From an uncultured virus (IMG/VR IMGVR_UViG_3300042298_004026) (Duplodnaviria; Heunggongvirae; Uroviricota; Caudoviricetes), in the IMG/VR virus record IMGVR_UViG_3300042298_004026: a stretch of DNA of 64,000 nucleotides; one strand, written 5' to 3'. Of this stretch, positions 33,914-51,118 are shown piece after piece. The position numbers and the translations under genes are program-made. Below the pieces are notes generated by a model that was not told the origin of the DNA, searched no databases, and saw nothing but the letters and a program-made list of their open reading frames with translations. Position 1 is the first letter of the stretch, and each line of letters starts with the position of its first letter.

Positions 33914-34143
33914 AATATCGTCCAGATACAAGCGACTCTAATTATATTCGAGATCCTCTGTCCAAAGCTGTTCTAAATATTGATATGGCAGGATATGAAC
34001 GGTTCAAAACGGAACGAGACTTCATACTAAGGCAGCAACAACTTGAAAATAGTGTGCATGATCTTAAAAAAGATTTGAATGAATTTAAAGACTTAATTAA
34101 ACAGTTAATTAACGGAAACACAAATGGCAAGACCAATAGCTAA
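33910..34143 (+). CDS. Small conserved coiled-coil protein
   Basis: RDPLSKAVLN.D...Y followed by a coiled coil ending LIKQLI. GTG start. Confidence 0.65.
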   Translation: MKYRPDTSDSNYIRDPLSKAVLNIDMAGYERFKTERDFILRQQQLENSVHDLKKDLNEFKDLIKQLINGNTNGKTNS

Positions 34144-36196
34144 TGTTGTTATATCTACGGATTCATTTGCAACGTGGATTGGTATTACTAATCGGATAGC
34201 GGACACTATTACGACGCAGGCCTTAACAGCAAACAACACCGCTAATGGGGCTAATGTTTCTGGTAATTCACAACTAATAGGTATTTTTGCTGCAAACACT
34301 ATAGCTGCTGGTACAACCCTACGTGGTGGTACAGTTAACGCATCGGCTAATTTAAATCTAACATCAAATGCTTACTTTACAGGAAGTAATACGGCATTTG
34401 CTAGTAACGTTGCCGTTTACAATTCGACAGGATATTTTTACTCAAATACTCAAACGTTTTACATAGCTGGTACATTTGCCAATGTAACCGCAAATAGCTA
34501 CTTTAATTCTAACTTCTTTATTGCTAACACGGTCATAAACCGTATACAAGGTGGTGGGTTTCAAGTAACCTCAAACACGTTACTTTCTTCAGCCAACGTA
34601 TTTGTTAACGCAGCAGCAACCACCATACAAAACGGTCAAGCAACAATAACATCTAACGTCTCTATTGAGAATGCAAATACCAATATTAATGCAACAGCTT
34701 TTGGTGTTCAAGGTGTTAGCACTATAACAGGTAATACTACATTAAAAGGCAATACATCTACTAATAGTATTCAGCTCACTGGCAATTCGACTGTAACCGC
34801 TTTGACGGTAAGTGTCAACAGCACTTCTGTTGCAGGTAATTTGGCTGTGACAAATGCTACTTCGTTATCCAATACGTTATCTGTTACTGGCAACACAACG
34901 ATATCAAATACATTAGCTGTTACTGGTAATGTGACGTTTTCTAATACATTATTTGTTGTTGGTGCAGCTACACTATCAAATACATTAGCCGTGACAAATG
35001 CAGTAACTTTGTCGAACACGTTGTTGACGGTAGGTAATGTAACGTTTTCGAATACATTAGCTGTAACCGGTGCTGTCACAATGTCTAATACGCTAGCCGT
35101 GACAAATGCAGCTACGTTTTCAAATACAATATCCGTTACTGGTAATGCTACTTTTTCAAACACAATATCTGTTACGGGCGCTGCAACACTTTCAAATACA
35201 CTGGCAGTGACAAATGCGGCAACATTATCTAACACACTGTCTGTTACTGGTAATGCTACGTTCTCAAACACAATAGCTGTTACAGGTAATGTAACGTTTT
35301 CAAACACGCTAGTCGTAACTGGTGCTGTAACGTTATCAAATACATTAGCTGTAACTGGTACTGGGACGGTGAATGGTGCATTCACGGTTAACAATACAGC
35401 TTCTGTAGGCAACACAACGATAACAGGATTCGTTAACGTATCATCAACAGCAAATGTTGGTGGTAATGTAAATTTAAGAGGTACCCTCACTGTTAATGGT
35501 GCTGTGACAGTACCTAATACATTAGCTGTAGGAAATACTAGTGTTACTGGTTTTGTGTCTGTGACGCAGACATTGGGTGTAACTAACGCTGCTACTTTCT
35601 CCAACACACTAGCGGTCACGGGTAACGTAACGTTTTCTAATACGTTAGCGGTTACAGGTGCAACGACTTTATCTAATACGTTAGCTGTTACAGGTAATGC
35701 GACGTTCTCAAATACAATAGCTGTCACTGGTAACGCAACATTCTCAAATACGATATCTGTAGCCGGTAATACTACGCTATCAAATACACTAGCCGTAACA
35801 GGTGCTACGACTCTATCGAACACACTCAGTGTTGCTGGTAATACAACACTCCAAACAGATCTTGAATTGTGCGTTGTATCGACTACACTTAATACAGTCA
35901 CTGTAACTCCACAAGATGTATTGGTGTTAACAAAGCCTGTGGGATATAGAGCTGCAAAAATAACTGCAGCAGTGACGAGTCAAAGCGGTGCCAATGTATC
36001 AACACAGGAAATGATCCTTGCACATTCAGCTTCTGCTAATGATGTAACATTAACAATTTATGGTACAGTAGCTGCTCCAGCAACATCTAATCTGGGTAGT
36101 TTTTCTGCCGCTATAAATACAACAGCACTGGCACTAAAGTTTCATCAAACAGGTGCTAGTTCGCTTGTAAAAATGTTCATTCAGTTTATCAAATAA
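34124..36196 (+). CDS. Fibre-like virion protein with 12-aa beta-repeat (NTLAVTGNxTFS)
   Basis: N-terminal DSFATW..TN motif; dozens of SNTL[AS]VTG[NA]xT[FL] units; small C-terminal domain. Confidence 0.7.
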   Translation: MARPIANVVISTDSFATWIGITNRIADTITTQALTANNTANGANVSGNSQLIGIFAANTIAAGTTLRGGTVNASANLNLTSNAYFTGSNTAFASNVAVYNSTGYFYSNTQTFYIAGTFANVTANSYFNSNFFIANTVINRIQGGGFQVTSNTLLSSANVFVNAAATTIQNGQATITSNVSIENANTNINATAFGVQGVSTITGNTTLKGNTSTNSIQLTGNSTVTALTVSVNSTSVAGNLAVTNATSLSNTLSVTGNTTISNTLAVTGNVTFSNTLFVVGAATLSNTLAVTNAVTLSNTLLTVGNVTFSNTLAVTGAVTMSNTLAVTNAATFSNTISVTGNATFSNTISVTGAATLSNTLAVTNAATLSNTLSVTGNATFSNTIAVTGNVTFSNTLVVTGAVTLSNTLAVTGTGTVNGAFTVNNTASVGNTTITGFVNVSSTANVGGNVNLRGTLTVNGAVTVPNTLAVGNTSVTGFVSVTQTLGVTNAATFSNTLAVTGNVTFSNTLAVTGATTLSNTLAVTGNATFSNTIAVTGNATFSNTISVAGNTTLSNTLAVTGATTLSNTLSVAGNTTLQTDLELCVVSTTLNTVTVTPQDVLVLTKPVGYRAAKITAAVTSQSGANVSTQEMILAHSASANDVTLTIYGTVAAPATSNLGSFSAAINTTALALKFHQTGASSLVKMFIQFIK
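34835..35850 (+). repeat. 36-nt (12-aa) degenerate tandem coding repeat
   Basis: Repeated AATACATTAGCTGTxACTGGTAAT...-like units. Confidence 0.9.
36112..36119 (+). promoter_or_regulatory. T4-type late promoter TATAAATA upstream of the 36205 gene
   Basis: Exact TATAAATA inside the 3' end of the upstream CDS. Confidence 0.6.
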
Positions 36197-36204
36197 GGTA
36201 AGTA

Positions 36205-37998
36205 ATGGCTGATACGTCAAGCAATGTTCAATTCAAGGTTGAAAATGGTCTCCTTGTTTTAGGTACCGCAAATGTTGCTGGACCAGCAGTGTTCAATGCC
36301 AACGTTGACATTAACGGGTCATATCTTTCTGTTACGGCAAATCTTCAAAGTAGCCTGGTTCCATTAAATAACACCTATTCACTTGGTAACGCAACATCGC
36401 GCTGGGCGTTGAGCGCAATGGGCGGTAGTTTTGTTGACAGTGTTTCAGTTACTAACACCTTATCAACAGGTAATACAACAATAACCGGTTTCGTCAACGT
36501 ATCATCCACAGCAAATATTGGTGGTGCAGCGACATTGAGAGGCACGCTAACGGTAAATGGTGCTGTAACTATTGCCAATACTCTAGCTACAGGTAATACA
36601 TCCATAACAGGTACACTGGCTGCTAATAATACAACTATAACAGGGTTTGTTAATGTATCATCAACAGCAAATATCGGTGGTGCCACGTCGTTAAGAAGTA
36701 CGTTGGTTGTAAACGGTGCTGTAACTATTGCCAATACTCTAGCTACAGGTAATACATCCATAACAGGGTTTGCAACAGTATCCACAACCCTTACTGTTAC
36801 AGGAGCGACAACACTTTCCAATACTCTTTCTGTAACAGGAAACACCACTCTTTCGAACACGCTAGCTGTTACTGGTAATACATCTCTCTCTAATAGTTTA
36901 ATCGTAACTGGTAATACGACCTTATCAAATACACTGGCTGTAACTGGTAACGTCGTTCTATCGAACACATTAGCTGTAACTGGTAATGTGACGTTTTCTA
37001 ATACGTTAGCGGTTACAGGTAATACCACTTTTTCAAACACTATTAATATTGCCGGTATCACAACCTTACGTAGCGCTGCCAATGTAGTTGGAGCAGCTGC
37101 AGCCTTCAATGCATTGACGGGTGTTGCAAACACGACGGAGTTCATCACCACAACGGCAGCACATGGCTTTAGTAATGGTGATCTGGTTCAGTACATTGTA
37201 TCGACTGGTAATACAGCTGTAACAGGTCTTGCAAATGGAACAAGTTACTACGTGGTTGAGGCGAATTCAACTGCATTCAAGTTATCCTCGTCGTATGGTG
37301 GATCAGTCATAAATCTAACCGCCAGTGTTAGTGAAGTTGGACATACTCTTACACCCCAACGAATTGTTCTATCAACGAATGGTAATATTGATAGTTCGTT
37401 AGGATTAGCTAACGTTGGCTCTTTACGTGTATTAGGGACCGCTGTTGTAAACGGTGCAGTAACGCTAGCTAGTACGTTAGGTGTTACTGGAGCAGCAACA
37501 TTTTCAAACACAATATCCGTAACAGGTAATGCGACCCTGTCAAACACGCTTGCTGTTACTGGTGCAACGACACTATCAAATACACTTGTTGTTTCGGGTA
37601 ACGCAACATTTGACACAGATTTGCTTTTCATTGATGCAGTAAACAACAGAATTGGATTCAAGAACACATCACCAAGCTCAACCGATCTAATAACTATATC
37701 AGGTAATACTGTACTTACTGGTTTAAGTGCAGCTATTCGTTTCCTATCGTCAAACGCAACACATAATGCGTCTATTACAATAGCCGGTAACACAACAAAT
37801 ACACGTACGACGTTTACTACATACGAAGCGAACGCAACAGCAAGTGATGGTGGTTTTATTTTCCAGGCAGCAAACGGAACAACAACCACATCTGTTCTAG
37901 CTTTTAATCAAACTGAGCTAAAGTATAAAACTGGTAATGTTGCACATGCAGGAAATTTTGGGATTTACGATGTAAGCGGTACGCGGCTAGGACCATGA
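36205..37998 (+). CDS. Fibre-like virion protein with 12-aa repeats and one H-G-F module
   Basis: FKVENGL N-terminus, YSLG...RW motif, NTLAVTG repeats, and an AHGFSNGDLVQY...YYVV...FKLS module. Confidence 0.7.
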   Translation: MADTSSNVQFKVENGLLVLGTANVAGPAVFNANVDINGSYLSVTANLQSSLVPLNNTYSLGNATSRWALSAMGGSFVDSVSVTNTLSTGNTTITGFVNVSSTANIGGAATLRGTLTVNGAVTIANTLATGNTSITGTLAANNTTITGFVNVSSTANIGGATSLRSTLVVNGAVTIANTLATGNTSITGFATVSTTLTVTGATTLSNTLSVTGNTTLSNTLAVTGNTSLSNSLIVTGNTTLSNTLAVTGNVVLSNTLAVTGNVTFSNTLAVTGNTTFSNTINIAGITTLRSAANVVGAAAAFNALTGVANTTEFITTTAAHGFSNGDLVQYIVSTGNTAVTGLANGTSYYVVEANSTAFKLSSSYGGSVINLTASVSEVGHTLTPQRIVLSTNGNIDSSLGLANVGSLRVLGTAVVNGAVTLASTLGVTGAATFSNTISVTGNATLSNTLAVTGATTLSNTLVVSGNATFDTDLLFIDAVNNRIGFKNTSPSSTDLITISGNTVLTGLSAAIRFLSSNATHNASITIAGNTTNTRTTFTTYEANATASDGGFIFQAANGTTTTSVLAFNQTELKYKTGNVAHAGNFGIYDVSGTRLGP

Positions 37999-37999
37999 A

Positions 38000-40900
38000 A
38001 TGGCAAGACCACTTAGAGCAAGATATGTTACAGCAAGTACAAGTGACGGTGTTCAGGAGATGTCGGATAGCGACATCAATGACCTTGTTATTCCTAGGAT
38101 AACCAACTTATTTTACGCTGCATCAAATACATCTGGCTACGGTAACAAACTCGAACTAAGAACTACACCACCAACTTGGAATTATGTTACTGGTGGGACT
38201 GTTCTTGATGTGTTTCCAACAGCTTTACCGCCCATCGGGACACATCCAGTAACTTCTTCGTCAACAACATACACGTTGTACCAAAATCTTGACACTGCAT
38301 TGACAACAAACTTTGATCTTATAACCAAACCTGTTAAAACAGAGGCAAGTGGTGGTGTTCAAAAGATTCAACAGTTTTCAAACAATGAAATCAGAGATGA
38401 TATTCATAGTAAAGTTATTGCTGAAATATCTGTTGGGGCACAAGGAGCTTACTGGCTTGGAACTTCACCACCAGGAACAGGTACGTGGATTGTTGTATCC
38501 TCAATAAACGATACTTTTGTTAACTCGACAAGCAATAGCACGCAAACAACCACATATAATTTGTATCAGCGCTCTACGAATAGTGGGTATGGTACAAAGA
38601 GGCCTTTAAAAGGTACAGCGAACGCTCTTACAGAGATGTCCGATGCTGAAATTGACACAATGACAGCGGCTATACGTGATTGTATTGCGGCTGGTATTGG
38701 TAGATATCAAATATCGACTACATCACCAACGCCTGGTACTTGGGTAGCTCGTGGTTCTTTCACAGATACACAGAATGGTATAGAGGATCAATCATATTCC
38801 GGTAGTTACTTGGGTACTTTTACAGGTGCGTTCAGTGGCATTTATAATCAAGCATTCACAGGAGCTTATCAGGGACAGTTTAATCGGGCATTTACAGGTA
38901 ACTTTATTGATACTTCTAAATTTACTGGTGCATTTGCAGGTGTGTATCAGCAAAATTTTACAGGTATCTATTCACGTATTTTTACTCGTGATACAAACAC
39001 CTCGTTTACGGGTGTTTATCAGAACACATATACAGGTAATTACACAGGTTTATTTGCGGGTGCATACTCACAGGTATTCTCCGGTGGATATTTGGGAAGT
39101 TATCAAGGCTCTACTTTTACTGGCGGCTTCAACCAGACTTTTGCTGGTACGTATGTGGGAACATTTACAGGACCATATTCAGGAAATTTCCAGGGCGTAA
39201 CATATTCAGGCGGATTCAATCAAAATTTTACTGGCGTATATGTAGGGGCGTTTTCAAGACCATATGCTGGGAACTTCCAAGGTATAACATATTCGGGTGG
39301 ATATAATCAGACTTTTGCCGGTACGTATGTGGGAACATTCACGGGACCATATTCTGGTTCTTATCAGGGTACAATATATCCTGGTGGGTATAATCAGACG
39401 TTTGCTGGAACATACAATCAAACGTTTACAGCTCAATACTCAGGGGATTTCCAGGGCGTAACATATTCAGGCGGTTACAATCAGACTTTCATAGGTGTAT
39501 ACGCAGGATCATTTTCAAGACCATATGCTGGGAATTTTCAAGGTATAACATATTCAGGTAGCTACAATCAAACCTTTGCCGGTACGTATAATCAAAGTTT
39601 TACCGGTGGATTTGTAAATAATTATGCCGGGACCTACTCACAGGCGTTCAGTGCCACGTACGCTGGTGGATATGTTGGGGACTTTTCAAGAGCATATACA
39701 GGTTCATATCAGAACACATATTCAGGGGCATATGCAAATACGTGGTCTCGAATATTTTCAAGAGCGTGGACGGGATCCTATACTGCTGCATATACGGGCG
39801 ATTATACTGGTGCATATACGAAGGCCTTTGCGCGACTTTTCACAGGAACATATACAGGCGCTTGGATTGGTAACTACACACGTGGCTTTGTAGGCCTATA
39901 TGGTTCAACATTCTCAAGAGGCTTCTCCTCCTTTTTCGTGGCCGCGTACACTTCAACGTATGCAGGAACTTATACAGGTAACTACACACGAGCTTTCACA
40001 CCATCGTTTCAAGGATCGTATGCACTTCCTTCTGTAGGCTCCTACGATGGGGATTACATAGCAGGTGGATTTACTGGGCCTTTCAACATCACGTATTATA
40101 CAGGTACATATCAGGGCACATATAACAGCTTTTTCACGGGTACGTATGAAGGTGCTTTCTCACGTATATTTGCCGGTAGTTATGCTGGTACATACCAAGA
40201 CCCCTATACAATAACATCATTTACGGGGCCATTTGCTGGTACAGGTTATTTTACAGGATCGTACGTTGGCAATTACCAAGGTAATTTTGGCGCTAGTTAT
40301 CAAACGACATTCCAGGGATTTTATTCGGGTTTATATACGCAGGCCTTTTTGAGAGCGTGGACGAACGTATTTGTATCAAGCTGGACATCACTGTATGCTG
40401 GTACATACTCAAGAGCATTTACAGGTGAATATCTCCAAAACTACATTGGATCGTATGAAGGAACATTCAGTAGAGAGTTCTCAGCCCCATATCAGGGATC
40501 ATATGAGAATAGTTGGTCAAGAATATTTACTGGTGATTGGACGGGGGGTTTTAGTACTAATTACACTGGTGGGTATGTTAATTTTTGGACAGGGTCTTAC
40601 ACGAGTACATATTCCAGGGTTTTTTCGGGAGCTTATACTGGTGTAATTACATACACGGGTGGGTTTGTTGGGTTATATGCAAATACGTGGGCAGGCAGTT
40701 ACACAGGACAATTTACTGGTGGCTATACTAGGGCGTTCACGGGTGACTATACGGCTACTTGGTCAGGATCCTATACCGGTGCGTACTCACAAAACTTTAC
40801 CGGTTCGTATACAGGGACCTTTACTGGTGGATATACGGCTACGTGGACCGGTACCTACTCAAGAGTATTCACAGGACAGTTTACAGGCGGATATACCGCG

Positions 40901-41548
40901 GTATTTACTGGTGCTTATACATCAACCTGGACAGGTTCATATGTAGGTTCATACTCACAAAACTTTTCTGGTAACTATGTAGGAACATTTACGGGTGCGT
41001 ATACATCCACTTGGACAGGTTCTTACACCGGATCGTATTCACAAAACTTTACTGGTATATACACAGGCACGTTCACAGGGGCATACACGGCTACGTGGAC
41101 GGGTGTATATTCTGGTGCGTATTCACGAAATTTTACAGGCGCATATACGGGTACATTCAGCGGCAACTACACAGCTACCTTTGCTGGGACGTACACGGGC
41201 GGTTATACACGAGCATTTTCTGGTACATACGCTGGTAACTACACGGGCGGGTTTATTGGTCAGTGGACAGGAGTATACAGCCGTATATTCACTGGTTTAT
41301 ATACCGGCGCGTTCACAGGCGTTTTTATTGGTAACTTTACAGGTAGTTATGTTGGGACATATTCACGTATATTTACGGGTGCATATACTGGTTTGTTCAC
41401 TGGCTCATATTCTGGAGCATATACGGGTGCTTTCAGTGGTAACTATGCTAATAATTTTACACGATTATTTACAGGGGCATACTCGGGTCTAACCGTCACC
41501 GGTACAACGACGACGACTACATATACATTATGGGTTAGAACAGCTTGA
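38000..41548 (+). CDS. Giant tetrapeptide-repeat protein A (1182 aa), putative virion fibre
   Basis: Three N-terminal RPL...EMSxxxI modules, about 900-aa [FYW]xGx array (38795-41491), C-terminal LWVRTA. Confidence 0.8.
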   Translation: MARPLRARYVTASTSDGVQEMSDSDINDLVIPRITNLFYAASNTSGYGNKLELRTTPPTWNYVTGGTVLDVFPTALPPIGTHPVTSSSTTYTLYQNLDTALTTNFDLITKPVKTEASGGVQKIQQFSNNEIRDDIHSKVIAEISVGAQGAYWLGTSPPGTGTWIVVSSINDTFVNSTSNSTQTTTYNLYQRSTNSGYGTKRPLKGTANALTEMSDAEIDTMTAAIRDCIAAGIGRYQISTTSPTPGTWVARGSFTDTQNGIEDQSYSGSYLGTFTGAFSGIYNQAFTGAYQGQFNRAFTGNFIDTSKFTGAFAGVYQQNFTGIYSRIFTRDTNTSFTGVYQNTYTGNYTGLFAGAYSQVFSGGYLGSYQGSTFTGGFNQTFAGTYVGTFTGPYSGNFQGVTYSGGFNQNFTGVYVGAFSRPYAGNFQGITYSGGYNQTFAGTYVGTFTGPYSGSYQGTIYPGGYNQTFAGTYNQTFTAQYSGDFQGVTYSGGYNQTFIGVYAGSFSRPYAGNFQGITYSGSYNQTFAGTYNQSFTGGFVNNYAGTYSQAFSATYAGGYVGDFSRAYTGSYQNTYSGAYANTWSRIFSRAWTGSYTAAYTGDYTGAYTKAFARLFTGTYTGAWIGNYTRGFVGLYGSTFSRGFSSFFVAAYTSTYAGTYTGNYTRAFTPSFQGSYALPSVGSYDGDYIAGGFTGPFNITYYTGTYQGTYNSFFTGTYEGAFSRIFAGSYAGTYQDPYTITSFTGPFAGTGYFTGSYVGNYQGNFGASYQTTFQGFYSGLYTQAFLRAWTNVFVSSWTSLYAGTYSRAFTGEYLQNYIGSYEGTFSREFSAPYQGSYENSWSRIFTGDWTGGFSTNYTGGYVNFWTGSYTSTYSRVFSGAYTGVITYTGGFVGLYANTWAGSYTGQFTGGYTRAFTGDYTATWSGSYTGAYSQNFTGSYTGTFTGGYTATWTGTYSRVFTGQFTGGYTAVFTGAYTSTWTGSYVGSYSQNFSGNYVGTFTGAYTSTWTGSYTGSYSQNFTGIYTGTFTGAYTATWTGVYSGAYSRNFTGAYTGTFSGNYTATFAGTYTGGYTRAFSGTYAGNYTGGFIGQWTGVYSRIFTGLYTGAFTGVFIGNFTGSYVGTYSRIFTGAYTGLFTGSYSGAYTGAFSGNYANNFTRLFTGAYSGLTVTGTTTTTTYTLWVRTA

Positions 41549-41554
41549 GAAAAA

Positions 41555-44500
41555 ATGCCACTTCGTCCGTTATACTATAATACATCGTTATCCGGATTAC
41601 AGGAGATGTCCAATACGGACATCGATGGATATATTTCAAATGTAATAGGTTCTGATTTTGCTTCGACAGAAGATATTGGATCTCTCATCGTGCAGGATCC
41701 AGGTGATCCGGTTCCTGCAAATTCTACCTCCATTGGTACATGGGTTGATACACGCTACGATCAACAAATAGGTGACCATCCTGTTTCAGAAGCGAATCTT
41801 GTTTATTCAAACACAACCATTTATCAAAGATTGGGTGGTGGACCATTAACGGACCCTTCAATGGTACGACCTATTTGCTGGAATGATACGCTTGATGGCG
41901 TACAGCAAATGGCGAATACGGATATTGACACAACCATTATTGCGAAGGCCGTTTCTTATATTGTCAATGGTGGTGTCGGTTCATATGTCCTGCAGCCGTC
42001 TGCACCAGTAACTGGTACGTGGGTTGTGAGAGGGCGATTGCAGAATACTGAACGTCCATACTTTGCCAATGAAACATTTCTCTGGCAAAAAACGTCTGAA
42101 AGTCCAAGCGGCTCTATAAAGCCTTTGAAATGGAGTACTAATGCTTTACGTGAGATGTCAAATAACGACATCAAAACCTTGACACATAGAGCAAGAAATT
42201 ACATCGCCAATACAGGTATAGGCACCTATCAATTATCCACAACCACCCCGTCATCAGGCGGAACGTGGGTTGAGGCGGGTACGGGATTCAATGATACCCG
42301 TCAAGAAATAAGACCTCAAACTTATAATGCTCAAGTGTATACAGCAACTTTTTCTGGTGTATATACACGGGCTTTTGTTGGCAAGTATCAAGGTAGTTTT
42401 ACTGGTTTGTATGGGATACCATACACACGTGAATTCACAGGTACATTCGCAGATACGTTTACCGGGGCTTTCAATCAGCAATTCACCGGAGCTTTTTCTA
42501 GCGGATATGCAACAACGTACACGGGTACGTTTAATCAGCAGTTCACTGGACAATTCACTGGCGCTTATACTGGTGGTTATACAGGAACATTTACCGGTGC
42601 TTACACGGGCGGATATACAGGTGCATTCACTGGTGTATATTCGGCGCCTTATGTGGGTAGCTTCACTGGTGTATATGTAGGGACGTTTAATCAGCAGTTT
42701 ACTGGCGCGTTCAGTGGTGTTTATCTAGGGACATATCAACAAAATTTCACTGGTGATTATGTTGGTGGCTTTACAGGTGCATTCAGCGGTGCTTATGCTC
42801 AAGCATTTACGGGTGCATATAGTTCAATCTTTACAGCAGCATATAGCGGTTCGTTTACAGGCCAGTTTTCGGGTTTATACACAGGCGCTTTCACGGGTGT
42901 ATATGTAGGAAGTTACGTGGGGAAATTCACAGGCGCATATACGGCTATCTATAGTAGATTGTTTACAGGGGACTACACAGGTATTTATACTGGTGCATAT
43001 AGTCAGAACTTCACCGGTGCCTTTACTGGTCAATTCAATCAAGTGTTTACAGGTACGTTCGCTGGTGGTTATGCAGGAACGTTTAACCAAGTATTTACGG
43101 GCACATTTGCAGGTACTTACAGTAGCCTGTTCTCTGCAATATACACAGGCAACTACACTGGTATATACAGCCAAGCGTTTACAGGTGCATTCACGGGTAT
43201 TTTTAATCAGGCTTTCACAGGTAACTTTGTTGGTAATTATGTTGGTAACTATCAGCAAACATTTACGGGAGCTTTTGCAGGAACATACAGCAGTTTATTC
43301 ACGGGAAGCTACACAGGTAACTACACAGGATTATATAACCAAGTATTTACAGGAACGTTTGCTGGAACATATAGCCAAGTATTTTCGGGTAGCTATACCG
43401 GTAATTACACGGGATTATATAACCAAGTTTTTACAGGTACTTTTGCGGGAACATATAGTAGATTATTCACAGGAAGCTATACAGGCAATTACACAGGCAT
43501 ATACAATCAAATATTCACAGGTACCTTCGCAGGCACTTACAGTAGATTATTCACGGGAAGCTATACAGGTAATTACACTGGCATATACAATCAAGTATTT
43601 ACAGGTGCGTTTGTAGGAAATTATGCCGGGTCGTTTACTGGTTCGTTTGCTGGTGGATACACAGGTGCTTTTTCCGGTTCATACACAGGCGCTTACACAG
43701 GAATTTATGCAGGTTCATATGTAGGAAATTACCAGGGAAACTTTACTGGTTCATTTGCAGGAACATATAGTAGATTATTTATAGGTTCGTATTCGGGTGG
43801 GTACACACGTGCATTCACAGGAGCTTACACAGGAATTTATTCGGGCGGGTACGTAGGCTCCTTCACGGGTTTGTACTCCGGTGGGTATGTAGGTTCTTTC
43901 ACAGGTATTTACTCAGGCGGATACACGAGAGCTTTCTCGGGATCATACACTGGATCATATACTGGAACATACGCCGGAACGTACACAGGTTTGTATTCAG
44001 GTGGGTATGTCGGATCGTTTACGGGCATATACTCAGGCGGATACACGAGGGCTTTCTCGGGATCATACACTGGATCATATACTGGAACATACGCCGGAAC
44101 GTATACAGGCATATATGCTGGTGGATATGTGGGGTATTTTACGGGCATATACTCAGGCGGATACACGAGAGCTTTCTCGGGATCATACACTGGATCATAT
44201 ACTGGAACATACGTAGGAACGTATACAGGCATATATGCTGGTGGGTATGTGGGGTATTTTACTGGAATATACTCTGGTGGGTATACAAGAGCTTTCTCAG
44301 GATCATATACTGGATCATATACTGGAACATACGCCGGAACGTATACGGGTTTGTATTCAGGTGGTTATGTCGGATACTTTACAGGCATATATTCAGGTGG
44401 TTATGTTGGATACTTTACAGGAATATATGGTGGCACGTACAGTAGGTTATTCACAGGTGCCTACGCGGGTGGATATATTGGGTACTTCACAGGAATATAT

Positions 44501-47500
44501 GGCGGTACGTATAGTAGATTATTCACAGGCGCCTACGCGGGTGGGTATGTTGGTTACTTTACAGGAATATATGGTGGTACATATAGTAGATTATTTACAG
44601 GTACATACTCTGGAAGTTATCAAGGCAATTTCACGGGGCTCTATTCAGGTACATATAGTAGATTATTTACTGGCAGCTATACAGGATTATATTCCGGAAA
44701 CTTTCAGGGTAACTTTACAGGTGCTTTTGCTGGTACGTATAGTCGATTGTTTACGGGTTTATATACAGGATCATACTCTCGTGGGTTCACGCGGGTCTTC
44801 ATCGGGACTTATCAAAGAGGGTTCATAGGGTCATATGCAGGTAGCTTCAATAATACATTCACACCAACATTTGCTGGAGCTTACGCTCGGGCCTTTATTG
44901 GAGTTTATGCAGGATCGTACCAAAACCCATTCACTGGAATATATTTCACTGGTTATTACACTGGTTTTTACATTAATTTTTTTACAGGAACTTATCAGGG
45001 AGCGTTCACGCGTTTGTTCACAGGGGCATATACAGGCGTTTATCAAGATCCTTACGTCATTTTAACTTTTACGGGGCCATTTGCTGGTCCAGGTTTTTTC
45101 GCGGGTACCTATGGGGGTTCTTATGTAGGTGTGTTTGGCGCCTCATATAGTAGGCTATTTACAGGCTTTTATTCAGGATCATATACTGGTGATTTTACGG
45201 GAGCGTTTGCTCGGGTGTTCACAGCAACATGGACAGGGTCCTATGCAGGATCTTATCAAGGCAACTTTACAGGAAGTTTTGCGGGTACGTATAGTAGATT
45301 GTTTACTGGGCAGTATTCTGGCGCTTATGCAGGATCCTATCAGGGTAACTTCACAGGTACTTTTGCTGGTACGTATAGTAGATTATTTACGGGTACGTAC
45401 TCGGGCAACTACCAAGGCAACTTCTCCGGGATATATGCAGGATCATATGCACAGACGTTTACTGGAATATACTCCGGCAATTACCAAGGCAACTTTTCCG
45501 GAACATATGCGGGTGCATATGCACAGACTTTCACAGGAATATATTCCGGCAATTATCAAGGCAACTTCTCAGGAACATATGCAGGAGCATATGCACAAAC
45601 ATTTACAGGTGCATATGCAGGGGCATATGCTCAAACATTTACAGGTACTTACGCAGGCGGATATACAGGCTATTATTCTGGCGCCTATGCTGGTACATAT
45701 TCGGGTGCATTCAATCAAACATTTACAGGTGCATATGCAGGGGCATATGCTCAAACATTTACAGGTACTTACGCAGGCGGATATACAGGCTATTATTCTG
45801 GGGCATATGCTGGAACGTATTCGGGCTCATTTAACCAGACATTTACGGGTGCATTTGCAGGGGCATATGCTCAAACATTTACAGGTACTTACGCAGGCGG
45901 ATATACAGGCTATTATTCTGGCGCTTATGCTGGTACATACTCAGGAGCATTTAACCAGACATTTACAGGTGCATTCGCCGGTGTATATCAACAAACCTTT
46001 ACGGGTACGTATTCAGGTGGATATATTGGATACTATTCTGGCGCTTATGCTGGTACATACTCAGGAGCATTTAACCAGACATTTACAGGTGCATTCGCTG
46101 GTGTATATCAACAAACATTTACCGGTTCTTACTCGGGTACATATCAGCAAACGTTTACAGGTGGGTATGCAGGGACATATTCAGGGTCTTATAATCAGAC
46201 ATTTACAGGCGCTTTTTTAGGTAGTTATGAAAGTTCTTTCACTGGATTTTATTCAGGTGCCTATAGTAGATTATTCACTGGTAGCTACACAGGTGCGTAT
46301 ACTGGAATATATGTGGGTTCCTATGTTGGTACATTTAATCAAACATTTACGGGTAGTTTTGCAGGCACATATTCAAGAGTATTTTCGGGATTATATTCCG
46401 GTGGCTACACGGGTGCATTTACTGGAATATATGCCGGTGCTTATGTTGGCAACTTCCAAGGCAATTTCACAGGTAACTACTCTGGTGGCTACACAGGTGC
46501 ATTTACTGGAATATATGCTGGTGCTTATGTTGGCAACTTCCAAGGCAACTTCACAGGAAATTATTCAGGTGGATATACAGGAACATTTTCGGGAATATAT
46601 GCTGGTAGTTATGTAGGAGGGTATCAGGGCAACTTCACAGGAAATTATTCAGGCGGATATACCGGCACATTTACTGGTGTATATGCAGGCGCTTATGTTG
46701 GAAGCTATCAAGGGAATTTCACTGGAAGTTTTATTGGTGGCTACACACGTGTGTTCTCGGGCACATATTCCGGTGTATATACGGGTGTTTACACAGGTCA
46801 ATTTACAGGGATATACTCAACGTTATTTACAGGTGCATTCAGTGGGATATACGCAGGCGGATATGGTGGGAGTTTTCTAGGAAACTTCTCAGGGCTGTAT
46901 TCGGGCGGATACACAGGAGCGTTTACAGGTATTTACACAGGTATCTACACAGGTGGGTATACTGGCACCTTTACTGGAGCATACTCAACACAGTTTACAG
47001 GTACATTTACAGGTGGATATGCAGGCACGTATGCCGGTGCCTACCAAGGCAACTTCACAGGCGTGTTCCAAGGTACGTACCAACAATCATTTACAGGTAA
47101 TTACACCGGCATATACAGCCAAGCATTTAGTGGTACATATAACCAAGCATTCACAAGAAACTTTACTTTTGATTATACCGGTACGTTTTCGGGACCATAT
47201 GTAGGATTTTTCACTGGAAGTTATTCACAAGTCTTCAGTAGATTTTTTACAGGATCATATACGGGTCAGTTCACAGGCGCTTATTCGGGCATATACAGTC
47301 AAGCCTTTACAGGTGCGTTCTCTGGCAATTATACAGGTATCTACAGTCAAGCATTCACAGGTGCTTACACGGGTATATTCAATCAAACATTCACTGGCGA
47401 TTTCGTAGGAAAATTTAATCAAACCTTCAGCGGTATTTTCATTGGTTCCTATAATCAACAATTCACTGGTGCTTTTAGTGGTGGGTATACGGCGGTGTAT

Positions 47501-47983
47501 ACTGGCGCTTACAGTCAAGCCTTTACTGGTACATTCAGCGGCATTTATACTGGTCAGTTTTCTGGTGCGTACACGGGAGCATTTGGTTCATTGTTTACAG
47601 GAGTATACAGCCGTATATTCACTGGATCTTATTCGAGCGCATTCACAGGCCAGTTTAACCAATCGCCTGTTTACACGAGCGTGTATTCAAGACCATATGC
47701 TGGCGTGTATGGTCAGACGTTTAGTAGTACGACATATCCAGGTGCGTTTTATGCACAAGCGTTTACAGGAGAGTACACAGGATCGTATACAGGAACCTCT
47801 ATCTTTGGGTTCACAAGTAGTTTTTCTAAAGCATTTACTAGTTTGTTAGGTTCTTTTTCATCGTTATTTACAGGACTATATACTAACATAACAGGGCAAT
47901 ATCTAGCAGCTTGGTCGGGGTTGACAATAATGTCAACGCCGGAAACAATTCAAACACTTAAACTTTGGGTACGAACAGCATGA
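41555..47983 (+). CDS. Giant tetrapeptide-repeat protein B (2142 aa), paralogue of A
   Basis: Same N-terminal module triplet, about 1860-aa [FYW]xGx array (42338-47923), C-terminal LWVRTA. Confidence 0.8.
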   Translation: MPLRPLYYNTSLSGLQEMSNTDIDGYISNVIGSDFASTEDIGSLIVQDPGDPVPANSTSIGTWVDTRYDQQIGDHPVSEANLVYSNTTIYQRLGGGPLTDPSMVRPICWNDTLDGVQQMANTDIDTTIIAKAVSYIVNGGVGSYVLQPSAPVTGTWVVRGRLQNTERPYFANETFLWQKTSESPSGSIKPLKWSTNALREMSNNDIKTLTHRARNYIANTGIGTYQLSTTTPSSGGTWVEAGTGFNDTRQEIRPQTYNAQVYTATFSGVYTRAFVGKYQGSFTGLYGIPYTREFTGTFADTFTGAFNQQFTGAFSSGYATTYTGTFNQQFTGQFTGAYTGGYTGTFTGAYTGGYTGAFTGVYSAPYVGSFTGVYVGTFNQQFTGAFSGVYLGTYQQNFTGDYVGGFTGAFSGAYAQAFTGAYSSIFTAAYSGSFTGQFSGLYTGAFTGVYVGSYVGKFTGAYTAIYSRLFTGDYTGIYTGAYSQNFTGAFTGQFNQVFTGTFAGGYAGTFNQVFTGTFAGTYSSLFSAIYTGNYTGIYSQAFTGAFTGIFNQAFTGNFVGNYVGNYQQTFTGAFAGTYSSLFTGSYTGNYTGLYNQVFTGTFAGTYSQVFSGSYTGNYTGLYNQVFTGTFAGTYSRLFTGSYTGNYTGIYNQIFTGTFAGTYSRLFTGSYTGNYTGIYNQVFTGAFVGNYAGSFTGSFAGGYTGAFSGSYTGAYTGIYAGSYVGNYQGNFTGSFAGTYSRLFIGSYSGGYTRAFTGAYTGIYSGGYVGSFTGLYSGGYVGSFTGIYSGGYTRAFSGSYTGSYTGTYAGTYTGLYSGGYVGSFTGIYSGGYTRAFSGSYTGSYTGTYAGTYTGIYAGGYVGYFTGIYSGGYTRAFSGSYTGSYTGTYVGTYTGIYAGGYVGYFTGIYSGGYTRAFSGSYTGSYTGTYAGTYTGLYSGGYVGYFTGIYSGGYVGYFTGIYGGTYSRLFTGAYAGGYIGYFTGIYGGTYSRLFTGAYAGGYVGYFTGIYGGTYSRLFTGTYSGSYQGNFTGLYSGTYSRLFTGSYTGLYSGNFQGNFTGAFAGTYSRLFTGLYTGSYSRGFTRVFIGTYQRGFIGSYAGSFNNTFTPTFAGAYARAFIGVYAGSYQNPFTGIYFTGYYTGFYINFFTGTYQGAFTRLFTGAYTGVYQDPYVILTFTGPFAGPGFFAGTYGGSYVGVFGASYSRLFTGFYSGSYTGDFTGAFARVFTATWTGSYAGSYQGNFTGSFAGTYSRLFTGQYSGAYAGSYQGNFTGTFAGTYSRLFTGTYSGNYQGNFSGIYAGSYAQTFTGIYSGNYQGNFSGTYAGAYAQTFTGIYSGNYQGNFSGTYAGAYAQTFTGAYAGAYAQTFTGTYAGGYTGYYSGAYAGTYSGAFNQTFTGAYAGAYAQTFTGTYAGGYTGYYSGAYAGTYSGSFNQTFTGAFAGAYAQTFTGTYAGGYTGYYSGAYAGTYSGAFNQTFTGAFAGVYQQTFTGTYSGGYIGYYSGAYAGTYSGAFNQTFTGAFAGVYQQTFTGSYSGTYQQTFTGGYAGTYSGSYNQTFTGAFLGSYESSFTGFYSGAYSRLFTGSYTGAYTGIYVGSYVGTFNQTFTGSFAGTYSRVFSGLYSGGYTGAFTGIYAGAYVGNFQGNFTGNYSGGYTGAFTGIYAGAYVGNFQGNFTGNYSGGYTGTFSGIYAGSYVGGYQGNFTGNYSGGYTGTFTGVYAGAYVGSYQGNFTGSFIGGYTRVFSGTYSGVYTGVYTGQFTGIYSTLFTGAFSGIYAGGYGGSFLGNFSGLYSGGYTGAFTGIYTGIYTGGYTGTFTGAYSTQFTGTFTGGYAGTYAGAYQGNFTGVFQGTYQQSFTGNYTGIYSQAFSGTYNQAFTRNFTFDYTGTFSGPYVGFFTGSYSQVFSRFFTGSYTGQFTGAYSGIYSQAFTGAFSGNYTGIYSQAFTGAYTGIFNQTFTGDFVGKFNQTFSGIFIGSYNQQFTGAFSGGYTAVYTGAYSQAFTGTFSGIYTGQFSGAYTGAFGSLFTGVYSRIFTGSYSSAFTGQFNQSPVYTSVYSRPYAGVYGQTFSSTTYPGAFYAQAFTGEYTGSYTGTSIFGFTSSFSKAFTSLLGSFSSLFTGLYTNITGQYLAAWSGLTIMSTPETIQTLKLWVRTA
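43262..46729 (+). repeat. Mirror-arranged tandem repeat blocks in protein B: 84 nt x4, 120 nt x4, 72 nt x3, centre, 72 nt x3, 120 nt x4, 84 nt x4
   Basis: Blocks at 43262-43597, 43874-44353, 44390-44605, 45398-45613, 45614-46093 and 46394-46729. Confidence 0.88.
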
Positions 47984-48423
47984 AACGAACTATTGTAAAT
48001 CCGCATTGGGTAAACAATGCAAGAACAGTTATCTCTGCTGAATTTCATTATGATGACGGTAGGGTAGCGCAGGCAACGATTTCCGAGTCGGATGTTACTA
48101 ATCCAGACCTTGTTGAAATTAAATCAAAATTTACGGACGAGCAACTTGAAGCTAACACGCGTAAAAAAATTCAAGAGATCAATGCCGAGCGTGAGCGTAA
48201 GCATCAGGAAGAATTGGCTAAGGCTCAACGAAAACAACAAGAAGAATTGTTTGCAGCTAAGCTAAGAATTTTTGAGATCGACGCCATTAAAGAATCAGAT
48301 AATCGAGTGCTCAAAGCAAAGATAAGAAAGTCAAAGAGTGATGTTGAGGCTATGGCGTGGGCCTCGGCTTTGTTGCTTGATATAGCCCAAAAGGAAATAG
48401 CAACAAATTCAACGGCGGAGTAA
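47980..48423 (+). CDS. Hypothetical protein, possible fibre assembly chaperone
   Basis: ATGA-coupled to protein B. Small beta N-terminus plus charged helix ending LFAAKLRIFEI..IK.S....K.KIRKSK. Confidence 0.6.
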   Translation: MKRTIVNPHWVNNARTVISAEFHYDDGRVAQATISESDVTNPDLVEIKSKFTDEQLEANTRKKIQEINAERERKHQEELAKAQRKQQEELFAAKLRIFEIDAIKESDNRVLKAKIRKSKSDVEAMAWASALLLDIAQKEIATNSTAE

Positions 48424-48425
48424 AA

Positions 48426-49160
48426 ATGAATATTCGTAATGGTTTTTTAATTGTTGCATCACAACTCAAAGAGTATCTAGATTCGGCAAATTATCTGGCG
48501 AGTAGTATAAAAGACTACTATCCCGAAGCACACATCACTCTTTTTGTAACTCCAAAGCTAGAGCAATATGCTGACCGCAGTGCCTTTGATCTAGTTATAT
48601 CTGAGGATGTTCCGAACCATGTGCGTACAAAGTTGTACGCTCTCTCCAGAACACCATACACTGAGCTTACTGTTTATGTTGATGCAGATATGGAGTGCAT
48701 GCACTCTGATGTCTCGAATATTTGGGATGAAATGCCTGAGGATTGTGACCTCCTGATTACAAAAATACGTCCCTATAACGGTAAAGAGGATCGTTGGCCG
48801 GGAGGTGCGACGATACCTCAAGGCCGTATGATATATCATGGTGGTTTTTTTATGTACAGATCAAACCCACAAACACTTGAGTTTATGCGTAGGTGGTGGG
48901 AGGATTATAAATTACAAAGAAGTGAACCATGGCCTTATCCTGAAGAAGAGTGTAGGAAGTCCTTTGCTCAATGGGATCAATTTACTTTTTGGAAACTTTT
49001 AGCTGTTGACAAGCTAGATGTTAAGGTAGGTGTTTTTGATGATGATGCAAGATGGAATTTTGTAAATGGTTATTATCCAAAAGAAGCCAAAAAAGAGATC
49101 GTTTTTTGGCACCACACTATTCCTTCTAAGCACGAAAATATAGGGATCAAAGCTAAATGA
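48426..49160 (+). CDS. GT-A fold glycosyltransferase (GT8-like)
   Basis: SIKDYYPEAHITLF...KLYAL..TPY...TVYVDAD (DxD)...HGGFF...WDQF..W...RWN...HH. Confidence 0.75.
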   Translation: MNIRNGFLIVASQLKEYLDSANYLASSIKDYYPEAHITLFVTPKLEQYADRSAFDLVISEDVPNHVRTKLYALSRTPYTELTVYVDADMECMHSDVSNIWDEMPEDCDLLITKIRPYNGKEDRWPGGATIPQGRMIYHGGFFMYRSNPQTLEFMRRWWEDYKLQRSEPWPYPEEECRKSFAQWDQFTFWKLLAVDKLDVKVGVFDDDARWNFVNGYYPKEAKKEIVFWHHTIPSKHENIGIKAK

Positions 49161-49789
49161 AAGAAATTCAAATAAACAATAAAGAACTTAAACAAATTTT
49201 AAATGATTGGTTAGAGGTTCTTTTGAGAGCAGATCGTTCGAAATATCCCTATCAAGCAGGCGTGGGTAAAACTGGATTAGTGACTCCAGAGTATGCATGT
49301 AGTATGGAATACTTGCAACACATGCAAAGTAAAAAAGTAGACGGATTCCCAGAAACAACACATGGTGTTGATCTAATGAGGTTTCGACCACCACACCAAT
49401 CCCTTGCCGACGCTTTGGTAAAGCTAGACTACGATCTACTCAATTGGTCTGGATCGCGCAACAATGCGGTTAAGATGCTCTATCCTAAAGGCGGGTATAT
49501 GGGCTGGCATCATAATGCAAACGCGCCCGGTTATAACATTCTTTTATCATGGTCTGAAAAAGGTACAGGTTTCTTTCGTTACCAAGATCCAATAACAAAA
49601 GAGATTGTCACGATGCAGGACACGCCTGGGTGGACGTGTAAAGTTGGATATTATGGACCATGGCATGAGCCGGATCGAATCTACTGGCACTGCGCAAGCG
49701 CACATGAAGAAGAGCGGGTAACGCTAGGGTATATCATTCCTCATGAAGGGATGTGGAATAATATGTGCGATGATATTCAGTCAGCGTAA
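49157..49789 (+). CDS. Putative Fe(II)/2OG oxygenase-like (cupin) protein
   Basis: YPKGGYMGWHHNANAPGYNIL...YWHCA...RVTLG. Confidence 0.55.
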   Translation: MKEIQINNKELKQILNDWLEVLLRADRSKYPYQAGVGKTGLVTPEYACSMEYLQHMQSKKVDGFPETTHGVDLMRFRPPHQSLADALVKLDYDLLNWSGSRNNAVKMLYPKGGYMGWHHNANAPGYNILLSWSEKGTGFFRYQDPITKEIVTMQDTPGWTCKVGYYGPWHEPDRIYWHCASAHEEERVTLGYIIPHEGMWNNMCDDIQSA

Positions 49790-50511
49790 TATTTTCTAAA
49801 GAAGTGTTCGTAGTGTTTGGGTAGGGTTGGACCGTTAAAAAGTATCACAGGTATTTTTTTAACGGTCTCAACAAACTTACTTTCTCTATATGCTTTTTGG
49901 ACTGGGTCGTACAACGCATTCTCTTCAATGTCTACGCCGTAAAGAAAAGAATAAAATTTTCTTGTTGGAAAATATCCAATATTCACGTTGATATTTTCTT
50001 TCTCATAAAACAAAAAAGAGTCCATACCCCATCTATATTTGTTCATAAATGATTCAGGATCTCTAGATACAAACTCCCAAATTTTTTGTGGTTTGTTTTC
50101 TTGCCACGTCATGCAACTACTGTTAAACGGATGGTGAAATATTGGGAAACCATAGTCCCATTTTGGTCTCCACTCTGCTTCAATTAGTGTTAGCTCATTA
50201 TGATTAAAAGCAGTGATGTCGTTAATGTCGTGTTTAATGACAACATCGAGATCAAAAAAAATACGATCACCAGTTGGTAGTTGATCGTTTACTTGCTCAC
50301 TGAACAGAAACATCTTATTGTAGACGACGATATCAAACTCGTTTTCAACATATTCAATGATATTGATACCATGTGAAATCCCTTCGGGATTGTCCGTGTA
50401 GCAGAACATCTTGAATGGTCTTGCTATGTTCTTGCGGCACATCCTAAATAAGTTATTGACCATAGAGCTAGGGTATTTCGTACCAACTTTAACACATAAA
50501 ATAGTGAGCAT
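49777..50511 (-). CDS. GT-A fold glycosyltransferase
   Basis: ILCVKVGTKY...VNNL..M...FCYTD...K..LF...FFDLDVVI (DxD)...FNSSCM.W. Start is at 50511 or 50517. Confidence 0.75.
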   Translation of the reverse strand: MLTILCVKVGTKYPSSMVNNLFRMCRKNIARPFKMFCYTDNPEGISHGINIIEYVENEFDIVVYNKMFLFSEQVNDQLPTGDRIFFDLDVVIKHDINDITAFNHNELTLIEAEWRPKWDYGFPIFHHPFNSSCMTWQENKPQKIWEFVSRDPESFMNKYRWGMDSFLFYEKENINVNIGYFPTRKFYSFLYGVDIEENALYDPVQKAYRESKFVETVKKIPVILFNGPTLPKHYEHFFRKYYAD

Positions 50512-50515
50512 TTCC

Positions 50516-51118
50516 ATGGATATTCAATATCTAACAAAAATTTCAGATGTTTTAAGGAAGGGTGTGTCTACAGGGTTAAATGTGTTTGATTTCGCTAATT
50601 CATTCAGTCAAACACAACTCGAATCAAAAAAATGGTTGGTTGAAGAATTAAGTAAAGTTTCATTCAAGAAACAACCCACCATACTTATATTGGGTGGATG
50701 GTACGGAAGCTATCTTGTTCCACTGCTACGGCAGCATGTAAAACCTGATCACATATATTTCAATGATATCGACAGATCGTGTTTAGACGTTGCAAAAGAG
50801 TTACATACCAGATACAAAGAAGATAGAAGTATAAGTTTCCACCATTTTGATGCTACAGCAATGTTTCATCATTTTGATGCTGATATCGTTATAAACACTT
50901 CATGTGAGCACATGGAGCAGTACGAGGAGATGTTGAAGGAGGGCCAAGATACGTTATTCGTACTGCAGTCGTGTGATGAGGAAAGTGACCCGGGTCACGT
51001 AAACGTTTCCAAATCAACACAAGATTTTTTACACAAAGTTGGGTTAACGCGCGTATACATGCAGTCGAGAAAGAACCTTGGACACAAAAACAGGTTTTTG
51101 ATCATAGGTAAACAATAG
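50516..51118 (+). CDS. Class I SAM-dependent methyltransferase-like protein
   Basis: SFS..QLESKKWL...ILILGGWYG...FNDID...DIVINTSCEHM...LQS...RFLIIG. Confidence 0.65.
   Translation: MDIQYLTKISDVLRKGVSTGLNVFDFANSFSQTQLESKKWLVEELSKVSFKKQPTILILGGWYGSYLVPLLRQHVKPDHIYFNDIDRSCLDVAKELHTRYKEDRSISFHHFDATAMFHHFDADIVINTSCEHMEQYEEMLKEGQDTLFVLQSCDEESDPGHVNVSKSTQDFLHKVGLTRVYMQSRKNLGHKNRFLIIGKQ

Follow-up and report, generated by a model that had tools for sequence, protein, structure and literature searches.

An uncultured T4-like phage encodes two giant proteins, P0001 and P0002, each probably a single-chain cap that sits on the tip of a trimeric tail fibre and carries a long hairpin ribbon. Their genes lie in a window of 64,000 nucleotides, which is the whole stretch of IMG/VR record IMGVR_UViG_3300042298_004026 that was analysed. 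The reading frame of P0001 (38000-41548, 1182 aa) and that of P0002 (41555-47983, 2142 aa) are both open, and both proteins end in LWVRTA. Their layout is as follows.

38003..38290, + strand: P0001 repeat 1, predicted docking hairpin, helix and prism blade 1 (sequence profiles; model of a relative)
38324..38572, + strand: P0001 repeat 2, short loop, blade 2 (sequence profiles)
38600..38770, + strand: P0001 repeat 3 up to FTDT, blade 3 minus its last strand (sequence profiles)
38771..38794, + strand: P0001 conserved outbound stem (conservation among relatives)
38795..41488, + strand: P0001 [FYW]-x-G-x array, with antiparallel, complementary arms of ~456 residues (outbound) and ~464 residues (return)
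40121..40144, + strand: P0001 putative hairpin tip, Gly714 (tip-like motif, picked by eye)
41489..41545, + strand: P0001 return stem and last strand (LWVRTA), predicted to close blade 3 (strand matrix, profile-profile comparison; models of relatives)
41561..41833, + strand: P0002 repeat 1 (sequence profiles)
41864..42094, + strand: P0002 repeat 2 (sequence profiles)
42119..42298, + strand: P0002 repeat 3 up to FNDT (sequence profiles)
42323..47911, + strand: P0002 array, ~896 residues out and ~993 back
44969..44992, + strand: P0002 putative hairpin tip, Gly1145 (motif picked by eye)
47660..47900 (limits approximate), + strand: P0002 return-arm surplus of ~87 residues adjoining the base, possibly a side branch
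47912..47980, + strand: P0002 return stem and last strand, LWVRTA (strand matrix)

Repeats, array and returning strand

A profile of repeat 2 alone, built from 58 relatives, finds three repeats at the start of both proteins, where an earlier note on this DNA had seen three copies of a module: at aa 10-67, 109-191 and 201-264 in P0001 (E 7e-6, 4e-18 and 2e-16) and at aa 4-70, 104-180 and 189-256 in P0002 (E 5e-10, 4e-29 and 1e-16). Compared with one another, the repeats reach profile-profile probabilities of 98-99.6%. The GTW consensus that the note gave to all copies holds for repeats 2 and 3 (APxxGTW), and the short loop that it gave to copies 1 and 2 holds for repeat 2; repeat 1 is the divergent copy, without a clean P..GTW, and its loop has 23-24 residues with a conserved G.HP. 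The array of some 900 or 1860 residues said to follow FTDT (aa 254-257 of P0001) or FNDT (aa 245-248 of P0002) was recovered as 898 aa (~aa 266-1163) and 1863 aa (~aa 257-2119), respectively. A conserved non-repetitive stem separates it from repeat 3, the outbound length being 8 residues in 98 of 117 cases, while on the return side the last aromatic residue and the Trp are 18 residues apart in 76 of 117.

The C-terminal LWVRTA strand, which had been likened to the last strand of modules 1 and 2, resembles that of repeat 2 and not that of repeat 1. With a matrix derived from the last strand of repeat 2, and no C-terminus in its input, the C-terminal strand ranks first among 917 positions in P0001 (23.6 bits, runner-up 5.4) and first among 1886 in P0002 (9.1 bits, runner-up 0.4), and profile-profile comparison of the C-terminal piece with repeat 2 gives a probability of 75% (E 2.4e-5). 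A repeat-1 matrix places the strand second in P0001 and outside the top five in P0002, and the profile-profile comparison of the piece with repeat 1 gave no match.

The array is read as interrupting repeat 3 between its strands 2 and 3, with both array ends returning to the same base. This reading is supported by a natural deletion series and two AlphaFold2 models of short relatives, by the lock-step arm lengths and mirror complementarity along both giant arrays, and by relatives in which the corresponding loop of repeat 1 bears the array. The out-and-back hairpin on a compact base that the note had envisaged is borne out in this way, and the homologues with short arrays form the deletion series: inserts range from a 23-residue loop to ~1890 residues, about 80-fold, on an unchanged base. 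On sequence grounds, I hold the repeats, the insertion site, the matched arms and the residue code with very high confidence.

The array as a probable two-stranded ribbon

In blade 3, the turn that links strands 2 and 3 would be drawn out into an antiparallel two-stranded ribbon of up to ~900 residues each way, the last residues coming back to complete the prism. Gly occurs once per four residues of the array, and the outer face is mostly Thr/Ser/Ala. One face alternates aromatic residues and Gly, with Tyr lying over a Gly of the opposite strand and Phe facing a long side chain (Arg, Gln or Asn); since such a code fixes the register, length could change only if both arms gain or lose residues in step. 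Cross-strand aromatic rings that shield Gly in a sheet are known and make the same contact, but here it recurs ~100-230 times per arm and acts as a register code, of which there are at least two dialects. If straight, the ribbon would have a contour length of ~145 nm in P0001 and ~300 nm in P0002, and less if coiled.

In both giant proteins the reversed alignment of the arms scores far above shuffles and the same-direction alignment does not. Arm lengths are equal within 1-2 residues in 24 of 27 proteins, the putative P0001 tip lies at Gly714 where the rule from short relatives gives 713, and the models of relatives have long beta-strands, one short relative being modelled as a hairpin at pLDDT 85-98. 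The matched arms, the reversed-only signal and this hairpin speak against a solenoid, amyloid-like or disordered low-complexity array whose C-terminal strand likeness is incidental. Such an array would fit the low confidence with which the centre of the P0003 array is modelled and a mirror test that was negative in 56 of 90 long arrays, most of these irregular, yet I find it scarcely credible.

In short relatives (24 proteins) the tip is conserved, exposes aromatic residues and often has Arg. One orthologue has a 177-aa globular insert in its outbound arm, with a weak carbohydrate-binding match (E 0.003, below the family cut-off).

Fold of the base

The AlphaFold2 models of two short relatives (pTM 0.89 and 0.74) have three strands per repeat, and in both the entire chain, together with its C-terminal strand, matches three-fold beta-prisms. 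The last strand would therefore close one three-bladed domain, and a single prism takes the place of the three separate globular modules of the note. For both models the top five structural matches are MABP-type, with middling Z.

An MABP beta-prism is defined by three homologous repeats, each a three-stranded sheet, which together form a type-I beta-prism, with PXGY in strand 2 (PMC2881412). The giant proteins have the three homologous internal repeats, and the models of relatives have the type-I prism of three-stranded sheets, as in the MABP domains of MVB12B (3TOW), Plu-MACPF (2QP2), Mp2Ba1 (8B6V) and MPEG1/perforin-2 P2 (6SB1, 6U23). According to excerpts of PMC6753088, one elongated hairpin leaves the prism of MPEG1 and binds lipid through a hydrophobic and basic tip; the giant proteins likewise extend one hairpin. 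The PXGY signature is absent, with APxxGTW in repeats 2 and 3 and none in repeat 1. The profile of 58 relatives found no MABP chains in the PDB at E up to 10, and no MABP-type Pfam family was among the matches listed for it.

PMC2881412 and excerpts of PMC6753088 link MABP domains to membrane binding, which together with the fold match could make the prism a membrane- or glycan-binding working end that is not attached to a fibre through the prism. However, the giant proteins lack sequence likeness to MABP proteins, the hairpin offers no free end for virion attachment, and the modelled interface described below is a conserved helix-and-hairpin layer outside the MABP match, which aligns from residue 41-47 on. 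I consider a working end of this kind very improbable.

Predicted docking to the fibre

The three repeats are predicted to fold as one pseudo-threefold base, each contributing a small N-terminal hairpin, a helix and a three-stranded blade. Within each repeat, the L-[QK]-E-M-S strand would pair with the [IV]Y[DN]xxGT motif at the C-terminus of one fibre chain, so that a monomer is matched to a C3 trimer, like gp38 on gp37. A 3:1 complex model of the homologous L018 pair scored 0.83, against 0.00 for the best control; the mark set for this score is reached by 116 of 157 solved pairs and by 2 of 215 mismatched pairs. The best contacts lie on the L-[QK]-E strand of each repeat, with no conserved Trp there, and the helix-and-hairpin layer that forms the modelled interface is conserved in all three repeats. 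Judging from the models of relatives, the prism fold and the 3:1 docking are highly probable. The elements concerned in the window are these.

38051..38077 (equivalents 38366-38392, 38627-38653), + strand: P0001 predicted docking strand of repeat 1, L/V-Q-E-M-S (transferred from the homologous interface; conservation)
41597..41623 (equivalents 41900-41926, 42146-42172), + strand: P0002 predicted docking strand of repeat 1 (transferred from the homologous interface)
34124..36196, + strand: repeat-rich fibre-like protein (690 aa), probable proximal part of the first fibre (presumed segment order)
36205..37998, + strand: 597-aa repeat-rich fibre-like protein, candidate trimeric partner; its last 12 residues (37960-37995) carry the docking motif (homologous complex)
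47980..48423, + strand: 147-aa conserved neighbour whose start overlaps the P0002 stop (cluster of 33 ORFs), possibly an assembly chaperone
48426..51118, no strand assigned: conserved block of glycosyltransferase-like, uncharacterised and methyltransferase-like genes, candidate fibre modification
51710..53635, + strand: fibre-like protein (641 aa), probable proximal part of the second fibre (same slot in relatives)
54038..54727, + strand: 229-aa protein, candidate partner of the second giant protein (long-tail-fibre distal subunit profiles; same docking motif at its end, 54689-54724)

The glycosyltransferase- and methyltransferase-like block may modify the fibre; glycosyltransferase-like genes lie downstream of the cap gene in most loci. 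Virion presence, the assignment of fibres to caps and host binding are fairly likely, and the tip, with any ribbon-borne domain, most likely makes the first host contact.

As described in excerpts of PMC6851490 and PMC12032242, gp38 of T2/T6/S16-type phages (PDB 6F45) is a monomer that caps the trimeric gp37 tip via three quasi-equivalent elements; a monomer on a trimeric fibre tip is likewise modelled here, in the L018 pair only. The gp38 gene directly follows the fibre gene and its Gly-rich part stems from loop insertions, both of which are shared with the giant proteins. However, gp38 docks via three Trp-tipped helices, whereas relatives of the giant proteins are modelled with strand pairing to the last hairpin of the fibre, and gp38 consists of a beta-helix and a polyglycine II sandwich, in place of a beta-prism base with Gly every fourth residue and a ribbon of up to ~1890 residues. 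Neither the three-helix attachment domain with three Trp in fibre pockets nor the beta-helix with its sandwich was found in the giant proteins, which showed no sequence or fold likeness to gp38 and no PHROG or Pfam matches.

Excerpts of PMC6957217 describe in the trimeric T4 gp37 needle (D10/D11) an out-and-back insert on a small domain (D10, residues 811-881 and 1010-1026) that is closed by the C-terminal strand, as is the insert of the giant proteins. Located at the fibre tip, the needle binds the host, and a tip position is proposed for the giant proteins too. By this likeness they might form a homotrimer with three hairpins wound into a six-stranded needle; phage fibres are mostly trimers (excerpts of PMC12032242), and the alternating aromatic/Gly face could pack a narrow barrel. 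I regard this as quite improbable, as the base is already threefold internally, the model engages all three repeats of one chain with one trimer, and the residue code is satisfied inside a single chain. The gp37 needle is moreover a trimer with seven iron sites and a ~130-residue insert without a tetrapeptide array, whereas a monomer atop a trimer is modelled here. His is outside the ten commonest residues at all four unit positions, with none seen in the P0001 and P0002 arrays, so that His-coordinated iron sites of the gp37 type are not evident from residue composition.

Function and distribution

Structure and docking would be the same if the ribbon were a passive tether, a drag element or spacer, or a scaffold that bears glycans or accessory domains, and if host specificity lay elsewhere. 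The ~80-fold length variation on a constant base, the Thr/Ser/Ala outer face together with the downstream glycosyltransferase-like genes, and the globular insert of the one orthologue would suit such a role. However, the conserved aromatic and often Arg-bearing tip resembles the lipid-binding tip of MPEG1 (excerpts of PMC6753088), and T-even adhesins act at the fibre tip (excerpts of PMC12032242 and PMC6851490), which makes a ribbon without receptor function rather unlikely.

While gp38 is a precedent for the role of a tip-capping monomer, I found none for the architecture, nor any prior description of a two-stranded ribbon fibre design. I lean slightly towards a wider reading, in which a widespread family in uncultured aquatic T4-like phages extends trimeric fibres by a single-chain ribbon with a contour of up to ~300 nm; the symmetry-matching prism would snap onto a short C-terminal tag that is portable to any fibre, the arms would pair by a base-pair-like code with more than one dialect, and the host would be reached far beyond the fibre proper. 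Described phage fibres are trimers almost without exception. If true, the reading would add to them a monomeric segment that has a readable pairing code and owes its length to a single hairpin. Such caps would offer a natural length series for studying the folding and register of very long two-stranded ribbons, and a small tag-and-cap pair for which test proteins of less than 400 residues suffice. Neither Pfam nor PHROG nor the PDB was found to have an entry for the family. It comprises 332 clusters at 50% identity, and one of 50,697 deposited phage records, Phage C48C1, matched.

Repeat architecture and natural deletions

The window is a block of structural genes from a T4-like phage, comprising fibre-like genes as well as those for baseplate wedge, neck, terminase, sheath and portal; some of these names come from PHROG matches, and the others are presumed from T4 gene order. 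Two giant proteins lie within it:

38000-41548, P0001, 1182 aa
41555-47983, P0002, 2142 aa

With a profile built solely from repeat 2, both proteins show three repeats, and repeat-versus-repeat matches reach 98-99.6% probability, which bears out the three-copy module described in the earlier note. Among the array units that start with an aromatic residue, 201 of 227 and 435 of 485 in the two proteins are exactly four residues long. Scored with a matrix from the last strand of repeat 2, the C-terminal strand ranks first of 917 positions in P0001 and first of 1886 in P0002. Repeat 1, the more divergent copy with a loop of 23-24 residues, gives a weaker match: by its matrix the same strand comes second in P0001 and is not among the top five in P0002. 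The proposed likeness of this strand to the last strands of both earlier repeats is clear for repeat 2 and weaker for repeat 1, and with this caveat the earlier observation stands.

A search of 1.84 billion representative sequences (E 0.001) returned 332 relatives, the best 150 of which were used, and 125 of the 155 collected proteins have a Met start and the same C-terminal strand motif. The distance between the Asp of the DT motif and the final Trp is 23 residues in the relative P0151, followed by 30, 32, 38, 39 and 41, and reaches 921 in P0001 and 1890 in P0002; homologues with short or absent arrays, which had been suggested as a check, therefore exist. In the AlphaFold2 model of the 287-aa relative P0076 (pLDDT 95.7, pTM 0.89), strands 241-257 and 260-285 form a single hairpin, and the return strand runs on into the last strand. 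The model of P0003, a short relative with an array and a base 40% identical to that of P0001, has strands at 247-281 and 356-391, residues 282-355 being below pLDDT 50. From these short relatives I infer that P0001 and P0002 would fold likewise. The natural deletions support the earlier reading of the array as an insertion in the repeat 3 loop with both ends returning to the base, a reading that needed one amendment.

In P0151 the array sits in the repeat 1 loop, with almost none in repeat 3, and P0078 has arrays in both loops with an identical tip sequence; because of these placements, the two loops are equivalent sites. Extra globular domains occur within or between repeats 1 and 2 in P0029, P0042, P0085, P0104, P0122 and P0144. 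The base is one that accepts passengers at several sites.

Pairing of the two arms

Of 159 complete proteins, 27 have a single copy of a tip motif. With arms of 14 to 210 residues, the return arm exceeds the outbound arm by 10 residues in 20 of these 27 and by 9-12 in 24; of the remaining three, one has a difference of 2, and in two Arg-rich proteins the motif falls on an ordinary repeat. The rule puts the P0001 tip at 713; the Gly of a tip-like motif, picked by eye, lies at 714. Orthologues, with motifs also picked by eye, are shorter in both arms (456/464 versus 341/349, and 896/993 versus 732/811).

Tyr-Gly facing across the arms is commoner than Phe-Gly, with an odds ratio of 4.8 in the anchored register versus 0.66-2.26 in others; aromatics on the diagonal also agree, at 0.43 bits versus at most 0.07. 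These statistics cover 90 of 117 proteins with clean anchors, 37 having at least four regular units per arm, and relatives among them are not independent. Aromatic shielding of cross-strand Gly is a known effect, as described in PMC7583600.

The score matrix for the arms was derived from 46 other proteins. With it, P0001 reaches 21.0 when its arms are aligned in reverse, against -14.0 +/- 6.3 for shuffles (best of 60, 2.1) and -22.4 in the same direction. The corresponding values for P0002 are 61.1, -52.3 +/- 9.3 (best of 25, -31.6) and -48.9, and arms exchanged between the two proteins score -17.6 and -23.8. Among 90 long arrays across the family, 34 have a reversed score above all their shuffles, and 4 a same-direction score above them; for the 35 regular arrays the counts are 24 and 1. 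An Arg-rich subfamily, to which Phage C48C1 belongs, pairs differently (Tyr-Arg, Arg-Gly, Phe-Ser), with information peaks at offsets 0 and -2.

Beside the base (window about 47660-47900), the return arm of P0002 carries an excess of about 87 residues (16 units). The orthologues in L002 and L003 share this excess, which possibly forms a side branch. In the P0001 array (38795-41488), outbound five-residue units stand opposite Trp-containing return units 5 times, suggesting Trp-covered bulges.

Predicted docking to the fibre

Gene order is stable in 43 loci and the window, running from a large baseplate-region gene through a 77-aa gene and a fibre-like gene to one or two family copies, with a 140-165-aa gene and then glycosyltransferase-like genes behind them. 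Upstream of the family, the gene bodies are unrelated and range from 88 to 1013 residues, but their ends are mostly similar. A C-terminal pattern, written after seeing these ends, fits 17 of 28 distinct upstream ends versus 1 of 363 others, the latter being window gene 54038-54727, which matches profiles of long-tail-fibre distal subunits. In previously unused DNA, a slightly wider pattern fits 6 of 245 ORFs: two in the window, the second-slot fibres of the related records G003 and G004, the known upstream gene of G004 and the 594-aa fibre of Phage C48C1. The closely related record G002 has two family genes, yet its second-slot fibre (L045, 6129 onwards; 341 aa) has a different end without the docking motif. 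The upstream fibres L019 6549-7988 and L020 6333-7967 also lack it and end in D-G/C-G-T-F, as does window gene 51710-53635; the partner of their caps may lie elsewhere.

For the L018 pair, the whole 359-aa relative was modelled together with three copies of the fibre's last 110 residues. The complex scores 0.83 (best of three controls, 0.00). Of 157 solved complexes 116 attain this mark, as do 2 of 215 mismatched pairs, though these counts apply only approximately to the present case. At least 87% of the contacts are shared between runs, and partner pLDDT is at least 82. Fibre motif residues 99-104, 106 and 109-110 are involved, and each copy contacts one repeat (16-26, 114-125, 204-216), the best contacts being with the L-[QK]-E strand. 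All three repeats conserve this strand, its Glu being found in 47, 43 and 53 of 67 rows, respectively, and P0001 and P0002 both have it. The model supports binding of the fibre end to the cap base, one chain per repeat. No similar complex was found by sequence, which makes recall from a solved structure less likely.

Proposed mechanism

I consider it rather probable that these proteins are monomeric caps whose pseudo-threefold base sits on a trimeric fibre and carries a ribbon. One blade 3 turn would be extended into this two-stranded ribbon, with the pairing code setting its register; as the chain end would close the prism, selection could favour matched changes in both arms. PMC6851490 and PMC12032242 describe gp38 on gp37, likewise a monomer capping a trimeric fibre, but fold and interface differ here. 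In the T4 gp37 needle the chain also runs out and back, but that needle is a trimer and has iron sites (PMC6957217). Database and literature searches found no known family, structure or paper describing this protein architecture, and look-ups on the docking likewise came back empty.

At 0.33 nm per residue, any coiling left aside, the ribbon contours are ~144 and 304 nm. The tip of short relatives is aromatic and often Arg-bearing. Together with the position of the tip and a globular insert in one orthologue with a weak carbohydrate-binding match, this points to host contact by the ribbon tip.

Neighbouring genes and related arrays

At 47977-47983 the P0002 stop overlaps the start of the next gene (ATGA, start 47980), which suggests coupled translation. 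Glycosyltransferase-like, uncharacterised and methyltransferase-like genes (48426-51118) follow the family gene in most loci; their products may act on the outer face of the ribbon, which is rich in Thr and Ser. A 962-aa protein (6670-9558, minus strand) has a lysozyme-like domain close to its end.

The baseplate wedge gene 20123-25567 holds a similar aromatic tetrapeptide array of ~540 residues (21320-22936), also found in three related records and with many 3- and 5-residue units; the pairing code learned from the family arrays gives no mirror signal in it. Proteins of 1367-1449 aa (L034 304-4617, L038 2011-6360, L043 41-4144) adjoin a gene of the family; they lack the prism base, and their arrays, of the same type, are flanked by other domains. 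Phage C48C1, the sole annotated phage record matched, encodes a 3347-aa relative (L004 14983-25026) in the Arg-rich dialect; its return arm holds globular inserts, and one stretch appears to be duplicated. The outbound arm of a P0002 orthologue contains a 177-aa globular insert (L002 11948-12478) with a weak CBM_4_9 match (E 0.003, below the cut-off).
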